From Chrysomallon squamiferum (lineage: Eukaryota; Animalia; Mollusca), in the NCBI GenBank assembly GCA_012295275.1, contig CM022665.1, positions 17,050,001 through 17,114,000 on the forward strand: a stretch of DNA of 64,000 bases, given 5' to 3'. Within the stretch, counting starts at the first letter, position 1. Each line of letters starts with the position of its first letter. The notes beneath the pieces were generated by a model. The model was given only the letters and a program-made list of their open reading frames with translations. It searched no databases and was not told the DNA's origin. The translations under genes and the position numbers were made by a program. Shown piece by piece: positions 58,101-60,537 of the stretch.

Positions 58101-60537
58101 TAGCACGTGATATACATCAGAAACAAAGATATAGTCATTCAAAAAGTGAATATACATATATATATATTTTTTTTTAAATTAAAGTGAGTAGCCAATGGGA
58201 TTACAAATTTCAGTTTACTCTCCATCACTATAACAATATCCTAATTATTTACACAAAAATAGAAAGCCAAAGTTCTAACAATAGTTAATATTCTGTGTTT
58301 AAATCAAAGCTGAAATAATTAAATAAAATACTGCCTACCTTGCAAACTCAGCCAACTGTTTAGGGTCGCTAAGGTCAAGGCCAGGTATGGTATTACCAGG
58401 CAGTTTCTTCCCAGACATATACTCAGAAAGATCTGCATCTGAATCCCCACCTCCCCCCACTGAGTCATCATCCAGTTTCTGTTCATCGCCTGCAAAAATC
58501 AAACACAAGATGTAATTTGAACTAAAGTTTATCTTCATTTTTAAAAATAATAATTATTATTATGCTTTTTGTTTGGTTTTGGTTCTTAGTTGTCTCTTTT
58601 TGTTTGTTTGGATTTTTTTAAAGTAAAACAATTAGTTTACTAAAAAATAGTAAAGATATTTGTTAATTTTATTCTGCTCAATAAAGTAATAAAAGTAAAA
58701 TTAGAGATGAAAATTCCATAGATATTACTTTTCTACAATTTAAATTCCATAGATATTACTTTTCTACAATGTTATTTATATTATACCTGTCATTCTGTCT
58801 TTAGTTTGAATAACTGGCTAAAATCAAATCAAAAAAAAAAATTCTTCCTTATTTTACTTTTAAAATTCAGAAAGCCCATCAGCTTTGTGTTAAATATTTG
58901 CTGAATGATGTTTTTGATTAGACATTCCTTTTTAATACACAATGTCTAAAAATTTCTTTGACCTGATTATAAATTGGTAATAATAAAGTAGTAGTATATA
59001 TGTTTACTGTTATTACTATAATAAATAGAGGCTAATGCAATGCAGCCAAAAAAAAATTCTAAATTTTTTTAAAATTTTAAAATTAAAAAAAAGATTTACT
59101 ATTCTGTCTATAGACTATTGCAAATTAAAATTAATTTACAGATTTCTGATTAATAATAATTATCTAGATCATTTTAAAACATTTTTGATTTGGGGTTTAA
59201 GTGGGGTAATCTTTTTTTACACACAAGCTGCTGTTTTCTTTTTTTATTCCCCCCCCCTCCGCCGTATTATGATTAAAATCTGTTTCGTTGGTTTAAAATT
59301 GCGGTAAAAACTGCATATCAGCCCCTTTATATATGTTTTAATAACTAATAGTTTACTTGAATTGATTTTAAAGACATATATTTACTTTTCACTTTATTGT
59401 ATTTGAATCAGCTTGTACAAGCCGTTTGATATATTTAATTGTGTAGACTGTGCCAAACACGTCACAGGTTCACCGCGCAAGTCAAATCTAGCTTCAACAA
59501 AGAACATGGTGGCCATTCAAGGTTATTTGAAGGTCAAAATAAAATTGCGCGTTTATAATTTTCAGTGATAACTTCAGGAACATTTAAATAAATACAAACG
59601 GTTTGCGGTTGTATTATTTAAATACTAATATACAATTTTTGTCCAATTTCGGCAGCTAGAGTATGAAATTATAAATAATCAATGAGAGCTGCCTTCTTAA
59701 ACCATACAAAGATGGCGTCCAGTCGCCATTTTACTAAAACTCCGCCATGTTCCTTATTAGAAATATGGCGGCGCCCATGAAATCATGATGGCGACCGCTA
59801 TTTCAAAACAAACTTTAAAAAGTAATGTTTACAGCATAAAATTAATTTCAAACTTCTCATATACAGTTTTTCTTTACATCGGAACTCAAAATGCATCGAT
59901 ACAACTGGTTGTCTCAAGTCCCATACTAGATCAGTTAGGTTTTGATCAACTTTTGTTGTTTTCAGCGGTTATCGCATATTTAAAGCTAAATTTGTCAAAA
60001 TAAAATCATTTGAACAAAAATATATGTATCTTAATTTGTAAAACAAAGTCTCTGGAGTACATAATAAATTCAAAAATACAAACCCGAAGCCCACATAGTG
60101 ACAGAAAATTCGCCTTCCAAAGTTTTGATTTGAACTTGTTTTTGTTCCCATTTCTTCGCTGCTGATGGGTCAAAATTCAAGTCACTAGTTCCAATAATGC
60201 CCAAATGACTTTTAGATTTTCCTCCTTTCTTTTTTCCACCCTTTCCTCTTTTTGGTGTTGTCATTTCTTCTGTCGTTATTTCGATTTCTGGGGCAGGAAC
60301 GATGCTATCCGAATACACGAGGTTGGGATCGCCAACAACCTCCTCTCGAGTCTGTAAAACAATTTCCTCATGTGCCGATTCAGGTAATGGTTGTAATGCT
60401 ATCATCGGTTGAACAGATACAGTACCATCAGTAGTTTCAACAGTTTCCACAGATATATCCACAGGAATATCGTCCTCCACAACTACTTCTGGCATATCTT
60501 GAGCTATTTCCACTTCCGAACCGATTACAGACGCCAT
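55184..60537 (-). CDS. YY1: Transcription factor Yin Yang 1 / pleiohomeotic orthologue (core exons)
   Basis: Exons 60537-60084, 58489-58339, 56458-56401, 56060-55902, 55357-55188, phase-consistent. Acidic N-terminus, GK-rich segment, REPO domain [24 protein letters not shown] and spacer [16 protein letters not shown]. Four C2H2 fingers run from [23 protein letters not shown] to [22 protein letters not shown]. Read-through of the last donor gives a TGA at 55186-55184. Confidence 0.97.
59709..59795. promoter_or_regulatory. Cluster of five YY1-binding motifs in YY1 intron 1
   Basis: AAGATGGCGTC 59709-59719, GTCGCCATTTT 59722-59732, TCCGCCATGTT 59741-59751, AATATGGCGGC 59762-59772, ATGATGGCGAC 59785-59795. 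The YY1 consensus is AAnATGGCG(G/A)C. A variant AACATGGTGGC lies at 59503-59513. Confidence 0.85.

Follow-up and report, generated by a model that had tools for sequence, protein, structure and literature searches.

A five-site YY1 cluster in intron 1 of a snail YY1 gene, with layout and flanking words common to bivalves, annelids and a fish, is probably inherited from the bilaterian ancestor and predicted to serve YY1 self-regulation

The window, which is the whole stretch of 64,000 nucleotides analysed here from Chrysomallon squamiferum (contig CM022665.1), carries a YY1 gene on its minus strand. The gene model consists of eight exons running from 60537 to 52575, with introns that are all GT..AG and an open protein of 385 residues, 377 of which are identical to the YY1 of Gigantopelta aegis. 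Exon 1 by itself is 99% identical to exon 1 of G. aegis YY1, the next named matches (Patella, Solemya, Lottia and Haliotis) lying at 70-74%. The coding parts and the first intron, numbered from the first letter of the window, are as follows.

52575..52629, minus strand: last coding exon of YY1 and stop codon
54328..54360, minus strand: YY1 exon of the gene model
55188..55357, minus strand: YY1 exon, zinc fingers 3-4; 56 of 56 residues as in the YY1 chain of PDB 1UBD
55902..56060, minus strand: YY1 exon of the gene model, zinc fingers 1-2
56401..56458, minus strand: YY1 exon of the gene model, start of zinc finger 1
57774..57851, minus strand: in-frame YY1 exon of 78 nt that separates exon 2 from the first finger; the G. 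aegis isoform X1 model includes it
58339..58489, minus strand: YY1 exon 2 of the gene model
58490..60083, minus strand: YY1 intron 1, 1594 bp, GT..AG
60084..60537, minus strand: YY1 coding exon 1, acidic N-terminus and REPO domain, ending in ...TMWASG with a phase-1 donor

The 78-nt exon may be alternatively spliced. In the stretches of fingers 1-2 shown in PDB 1UBD the sole change is N for T, outside the recognition helix, and the finger region of 110 residues is one residue (N/T) apart from the YY1 of fish, shark, frog and amphioxus. Since this region is nearly identical to that of vertebrates and amphioxus, the snail protein is expected to prefer the same DNA sequence. Tail to tail with YY1 lies PAF1, at 45787-47699 on the plus strand (Pfam Paf1, E 3e-14), and two protein-like open frames on the minus strand, 10925-11854 (309 aa) and 24024-24311 (95 aa), gave no Pfam match at E 0.01. 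Intron 1 of YY1 also holds a 31-bp tandem duplication at 58711-58772, with 97% identity between the copies.

An earlier note on this DNA had reported that intron 1 holds five ATGGCG cores in mixed orientation, four of them in full AAnATGGCG words, together with a variant at 59503, and a word search bore out both statements. The cores lie at 59712(+), 59724(-), 59743(-), 59765(+) and 59788(+), the five CGCCAT words falling within 85 bp; the full words start at 59709, 59724, 59743 and 59762, four of the five sites in the cluster also read as perfect GCCATnTT, and the variant at 59503-59511 reads AACATGGTG. The position given for the cluster, about 290 bp into the intron, was likewise correct, since its nearest site ends 290 bp from the donor (intron 60083..58490), the whole occupying +290 to +375 behind the REPO exon.

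59709..59717, minus strand: YY1 site 5, CGCCATCTT, oriented as sites 1-2 and reversed relative to fish
59724..59732, plus strand: YY1 site 4, CGCCATTTT, in the orientation opposite to sites 1-2
59743..59751, plus strand: YY1 site 3, CGCCATGTT, in the orientation opposite to sites 1-2
59762..59770, minus strand: YY1 site 2, CGCCATATT, the anchor of the element
59771..59777, minus strand: conserved TGGGCGC, adjoining site 2 on the 5' side; letters 1-5 are outside the YY1 motif
59785..59793, minus strand: YY1 site 1, CGCCATCAT, imperfect, with A at motif position 8
59803..59812, minus strand: conserved T-block TTTGTTTTGA, ending 34 bp before site 2, outside the YY1 motif
59481..59552, no strand: second conserved block, kept in a related species (organism B), with the low-affinity-type variant CACCATGTT at 59503-59511 on the minus strand
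59251..61250, no strand: CpG-retaining 5' zone of YY1, CpG observed/expected 1.09

The densest 110 bp contain five CGCCAT cores, and nowhere else in the 64-kb window are there more than two per 110 bp, in agreement with the statement that no similar cluster was seen there. When core density was compared with shuffled sequence, as had been suggested, it exceeded that of all 300 dinucleotide shuffles of the window (each with at most two CGCCAT cores per 110 bp), and a maximum of three was reached in 20,000 shuffles of 59251-60083, the stretch of the intron that retains CpG. The cluster does lie in DNA that retains CpG, but it is not an island of its own as had been supposed, being part of a wider 5' zone: CpG observed/expected is 1.09 over 59251-61250 and 0.87 further upstream, against 0.21 in the gene body (52575-59250). 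Low CpG in the gene body and high CpG at the 5' end would fit gene-body methylation with an unmethylated 5' end, and from these ratios the 5' zone of YY1 is likely to be unmethylated. The PAF1 region is CpG-depleted as well (0.21 over 40001-52500).

Contigs of organism B aligned to exon 1, to 59706-59920 and to 59481-59552, and the 153 and 155 bp of intron between these blocks gave no alignment at 80%. Within the 79 bp from 59737 to 59815, which include sites 1-3 and both flanks, organism B shows two differences, both in spacers; the 75 bp that follow have 12 (Fisher P=0.004), and the 488 bp of the exon-1 block have 51 (P=0.02). Eight of the 22 differences in block 59706-59920 lie near (~30 bp) its ends and were left unplaced, and sites 4-5 fall outside its readable part. 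Among the DNA runs from the same species (X1, X3 and X5), X3 alone covers the cluster, with no substitutions; of the 11 sequencing runs listed, none bears a ChIP or ATAC label. The cluster of YY1 words in intron 1 of the window is a real, constrained element. In the second conserved block, a GCCAT core neighbouring the variant at 59503-59511 is lost in organism B through a change at 59514. Two contigs from RNA runs, X8 (59821-60005) and X9 (59690-59923), also lie over the intron at a depth of about 2.6, and could represent pre-mRNA, an intronic transcript or DNA carry-over.

A cluster of this kind was described by Kim, Yu and Kim in 2009 (PMC2743690), who reported that the start of vertebrate YY1 intron 1 holds five YY1 sites in about 100 bp, and that a cluster is also present in sea urchin, amphioxus (four sites) and sea squirt (three sites). 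Drosophila pho was reported to be without such a region, and the authors concluded that it is unique to vertebrates. By ChIP, YY1 was bound at the cluster in mouse brain; in a zebrafish reporter, changing any one site abolished promoter activity, so that basal activity requires every site; and an excess of YY1 brought the endogenous YY1 transcript down to 50-70%, repression being relieved when YY1 was withdrawn (PMC2743690). As reported there, the copies tested for regulatory activity are those of zebrafish and mouse, and the feedback comes from one cell-line study with 2-fold effects (PMC2743690); our literature search found no later test of YY1 negative feedback. The earlier note was right that the window holds this YY1 intron-1 cluster and that the cluster is older than vertebrates. 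It missed that three invertebrate deuterostomes are already included in PMC2743690. It is therefore the protostomes, not the invertebrates, that are new, and a search that was thin on subscription journals found no report of a protostome YY1 cluster.

For the comparison of intron 1 across animal groups that had been proposed, metagenomes were scanned for the REPO end followed by a splice donor, with a pattern that demanded the donor directly after TMW-x-x-G. The scan yielded 19 loci, of which six were spliced cDNAs without the intron (L003, L004, L009, L013, L017 and L019) and one (L016) a duplicate of L011, leaving 12 distinct genomic animal YY1 introns. The same scan of viral contigs gave no matches, and the sole match in prokaryote genomes (L020) was dropped as a chance match in a bacterial protein. 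Ten of the 12 introns carry the cluster: two from bivalves, five from annelids, one from a fish, one from a probable brittle star and one unplaced. Each of the ten has four or five GCCAT cores in 110 bp within the first 700 bp of the intron, between +204 and +490 from the donor (P 0.0002-0.0026, 5000 shuffles each), and the rest of the sequence from these loci and the window, 60,470 bp used as a control, never had more than three per 110 bp. Taxa were placed by a quick tree of exon 1, which grouped L001 and L018 with heterodont bivalves (100), L006, L007, L008, L012 and L015 with annelids (91), L010 with carp-like fish (95) and L011 with tunicates (99), L002 and L014 forming long branches of unsure placement within the lophotrochozoan group. 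L005 has too little exon for the tree; it is probably a brittle star, because its intron matches the tail of a read-through protein (P0129, E 3e-10) that in exon 1 shares 93% identity with Amphiura. No cluster was found in 4476 bp of downstream sequence of the tunicate YY1 (L011, the same as L016) or in 2316 bp of L002, a fast-evolving, long-branch, lophotrochozoan-like YY1, and these two are possible natural losses.

The sites follow the order forward, forward, reverse, reverse, forward in the window, in bivalves L001 and L018 and in annelids L006, L015 and L008. The fish intron, with sites at +204 to +301 behind the same TMWASG donor, reads F,F,R,R,R as published, and serves as a positive control. 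Site 1 is found as GCCATCATG in L001, L018, L006, L015 and L008 as well, and six mollusc and annelid sequences retain it as GCCATCAT; TGGGCGCCGCCATATT is identical in the window, both bivalves and the fish.

Two further groups of YY1-type words lie outside the cluster. A distal module at 59456-59552 of the window, and at +510 to +620 in L001, L018, L005, L006 and L015, consists of a YY1-type word followed 25-70 bp on by GTCACGTGA (L001, L018, L006 and L015) or GTGACGTG (window), and its block is kept in organism B. In addition, the start codon of YY1 lies inside a YY1-type word, AAGATGGCG, at 60532..60540 on the minus strand. A CGCCAT core over the likely start codon is also present in L001, L002, L006, L008, L014, L015 and L018, and in L001, L006, L015 and L018, where these words lie at roughly -430 to -485 from the donor, a second site of opposite orientation precedes the start codon by about 20 bp. 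The Kozak context overlaps the YY1 motif, and these words may either extend the self-binding zone to the 5' leader or reflect mere overlap of the two motifs.

Indirect evidence from insects came from database proteins, some of which are mis-called read-throughs from YY1 exon 1 into intron 1. Among 32 such tails, seven are compatible with a T-block followed by sites 1 and 2 at close to the expected spacing, against none of 134 ordinary proteins, by a peptide pattern and spacing limits that were set after the peptides had been seen; most of the negative tails are too short to reach the element. Shuffles of each compatible tail did as well in 0-1 of 1000. The compatible tails are four ant-like (98-100% to named ant YY1), two fish-like and one annelid-like, and since the four ants are close kin they count as one supporting lineage. 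Four more tails (three ant-like, one thrips-like) end in CLF, as would result from a stop inside the T-block, and none of the ordinary proteins does so. Presence of the element in ants would imply that it was lost in Drosophila. In arthropod proteins such as P0065, P0153 and P0046 the donor of intron 1 is displaced three codons downstream relative to molluscs, annelids and fish, to a position after ASGTDDG, and the metagenome scan therefore largely could not fetch arthropod introns. Mis-called proteins that preserve translated intron sequence (P0037, P0065, P0072, P0078, P0083, P0143 and P0160) can be used to detect intronic elements where the DNA cannot be fetched.

Whether the snail and vertebrate clusters share ancestry or arose by convergence had been left open in the earlier note, and the flanks now favour ancestry. 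The T-block, TTTGTTTTG, ends 34-35 bp before site 2 in the window, L001, L018, L006, L015, L008 and the fish L010, and TGGGCGC adjoins site 2 unaltered in nine of the 11 carriers, with TGGAGGC in its place in the remaining two; among 225 other GCCAT cores, drawn from 133 kb, not one has TGGGCGC in front of it. A profile built without window and fish, in which L005 and L014 were included, recovered the window with E 1.4e-16; its match to the fish had E=2.5e-4 in a search of 292 kb, and the best reversed-sequence control E=9.5. The raw score of the fish (18.3 bits) is nevertheless matched by reverse-strand self-matches that arise from motif content alone (17.8-20.1 bits), so that the raw score by itself reflects motif content, and homology therefore depends on two short flanks and two deuterostome introns. 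In 1500 shuffles each that held the YY1 12-mers and shuffled the other letters, scored with a profile from mollusc and annelid rows only, the fish was above 1492 (8/1500 as high) and the probable brittle star L005 above all 1500, L014 (439/1500) and L007 (120/1500) not exceeding their own shuffles. By-eye comparison with consensus motifs of CTCF, E2F, EGR and Fox gave no adequate fit as readers of the flanks. Under convergence, the usefulness of self-regulation and the shortness of the sites would have led deuterostome and protostome YY1 genes to acquire their clusters independently, and this would agree with spacers that vary in length and cannot be aligned, with a fifth site whose orientation differs between groups, with the absence of the cluster from L002, L011 and Drosophila, and with the large share of motif content in the fish score. 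Convergence would leave to coincidence the same intron, the same order of the first four sites, the restriction of TGGGCGC to site 2 and the results of the motif-fixed shuffles (8/1500 and 0/1500), besides the T-block traces in ant-, wasp- and thrips-like read-through peptides. Because two non-YY1 words are shared at fixed spacing by snail, bivalves, annelids and fish, common descent is favoured and convergence appears quite unlikely, and the cluster was most likely inherited from the last common bilaterian ancestor.

The remaining alternatives concern the nature of the element. That it arose by chance, or is a repeat or transposon fragment, is so improbable that it can be set aside: the window has somewhat more ATGGCG words than expected (14 against 6.1), but core density lies beyond all shuffles, none of the direct-repeat families (the 20 largest of 22) covers the cluster, the profile has one match in the window besides its own reverse strand, and conservation across phyla excludes both. 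A cryptic exon or small ORF was discarded, given that neither the AG after the T-block nor the frame from the site-1 ATG is kept between species. An action in the pre-mRNA, in which the inverted sites would form a hairpin or an intronic RNA, could draw on folding (z -3.5 in the window and -3.0 in L001) and on the low-depth RNA-run contigs over the intron; against it, z is just -0.75 to -1.8 in four other sequences, none of 13 predicted pairs has a compensatory change, seven of ten sequences cannot form the outer pair of the site 2/site 3 helix, covariation is below that of shuffles (408/500 as high), there is no Rfam match at E<=1, and the positions that vary are those the YY1 motif leaves free. 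The missing covariation largely refutes this RNA reading, which we hold to be very improbable. A different proposal accepts an ancient YY1-bound cluster and makes it a constitutive promoter-proximal activator (intron-mediated enhancement) or a loop anchor instead of a dosage sensor, in line with its position in the CpG-retaining 5' zone, with the dependence of basal reporter activity on every site in vertebrates (PMC2743690), with reported YY1 motifs at annelid loop anchors (bioRxiv 10.64898/2026.05.18.725834) and with the single source of the negative feedback. The same vertebrate study, however, reported repression through the sites on YY1 excess and relief on withdrawal (PMC2743690), and no comparable cluster occurs at other gene ends in the 64-kb window and the flanks of the loci; we consider this proposal unlikely. 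The reading we prefer, to which we assign a probability of roughly three in four, is that the five-site snail cluster, whose layout and flanks are common to bivalves, annelids and a fish, was inherited within Bilateria and serves a predicted self-regulation of YY1.

By analogy with vertebrates, YY1 protein would bind the cluster in intron 1 of its own gene, in an open 5' zone, and thereby set its own transcription; in annelids, YY1-like motifs are reported to be enriched in open chromatin at loop anchors (bioRxiv 10.64898/2026.05.18.725834). At normal levels of YY1 the bound cluster would support promoter activity, and in excess transcription would be damped, as suggested by the vertebrate experiments (PMC2743690). 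It is reasonable to suppose that the strong sites (GCCATnTT) fill first and activate, and that the conserved imperfect site 1 (GCCATCAT) fills only at high YY1, tipping the cluster to repression. An A at motif position 8 is reported to lower YY1 affinity sharply (PMC1904287), and a weak site that is retained would suit the sensing of a threshold. The T-block and TGGGCGC could bind a putative partner at a fixed distance, since fixed-spacing flanks suggest a partner protein. Taken to its full extent, this model would describe a composite sensor of YY1 dosage, older than 550 million years, made of strong and weak YY1 sites plus TTTGTTTTG and TGGGCGC for the putative partner, whose copies in molluscs, annelids, insects, echinoderms and vertebrates would be interchangeable; we give this somewhat less than an even chance.

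If this is true, the element would be a recognisable bilaterian-wide regulatory element for protein homeostasis instead of body patterning. The known regulatory DNA shared by protostomes and deuterostomes amounts to a few dozen segments, nearly all at developmental genes, and the YY1 element would add a short and readily testable case at a general, dosage-sensitive transcription factor. The protostome clusters would also overturn the published view of a vertebrate-side origin for the YY1 feedback element. Natural variants (the flipped fifth site, the weak first site and the losses in fly, tunicate and one divergent copy), together with the two flanking words, can be compared to learn how a single cluster achieves both activation and repression, and the flanking words point to bases of the vertebrate element that are yet to be tested.

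Several known systems resemble the element in part. Peg3 and other imprinted genes likewise have several YY1 sites in intron 1, in CpG-rich DNA, but are described as mammal-specific YY1 targets tied to imprinting and are not YY1's own gene. The Bicores of Clarke et al. 2012 (PMC3410860) and the 25 segments listed by Frith and Ni in 2023 (PMC10735318) are non-coding and similar in deuterostomes and protostomes, with position and orientation kept at the orthologous gene and conservation concentrated in binding-site words. In this respect the snail element agrees with them, being non-coding and not a structured RNA (its spacer indels are not multiples of three), located in intron 1 in sense orientation with its anchor at +231 to +460 in 11 of 11 carriers, and similar between protostomes and deuterostomes beyond chance, as judged from one fish and one probable brittle star. 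These published segments are reported at developmental regulators, unlike the snail element, which sits in the gene of a general transcription factor and is made up of sites for the protein that this gene encodes; the term 'YY1' has no match in the main text of Frith and Ni and one motif label in its supplement, where 'tgggcgc', searched on one strand, has none (PMC10735318).

The closest system is the cluster of Kim 2009, with which the snail element shares the gene, the position at the beginning of intron 1, a set of five sites spanning about 100 bp with sites 1-2 forward and 3-4 reverse, unconserved spacers and a single imperfect site among the five. In the snail this is site 1, in the reported vertebrate cluster the third, and the T-block and the TGGGCGC flank are features of which the 2009 text, so far as it was available, makes no mention. 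The protostome carriers here are a gastropod, bivalves, annelids and, indirectly, ants. Like the 2009 cluster in its broad sense, the window has a YY1 orthologue with unchanged fingers and, at the start of intron 1, three to five sites in about 100 bp that begin F,F,R,R. The vertebrate form has outermost sites of opposite orientation, an arrangement absent from the window, L001, L018, L006, L015 and L008; the fifth site of the snail is forward, and the element is therefore filed as a variant and not as the vertebrate form. Judged from sequence, the cluster in the window is a protostome variant of the published deuterostome element, with which it is probably homologous across Bilateria.
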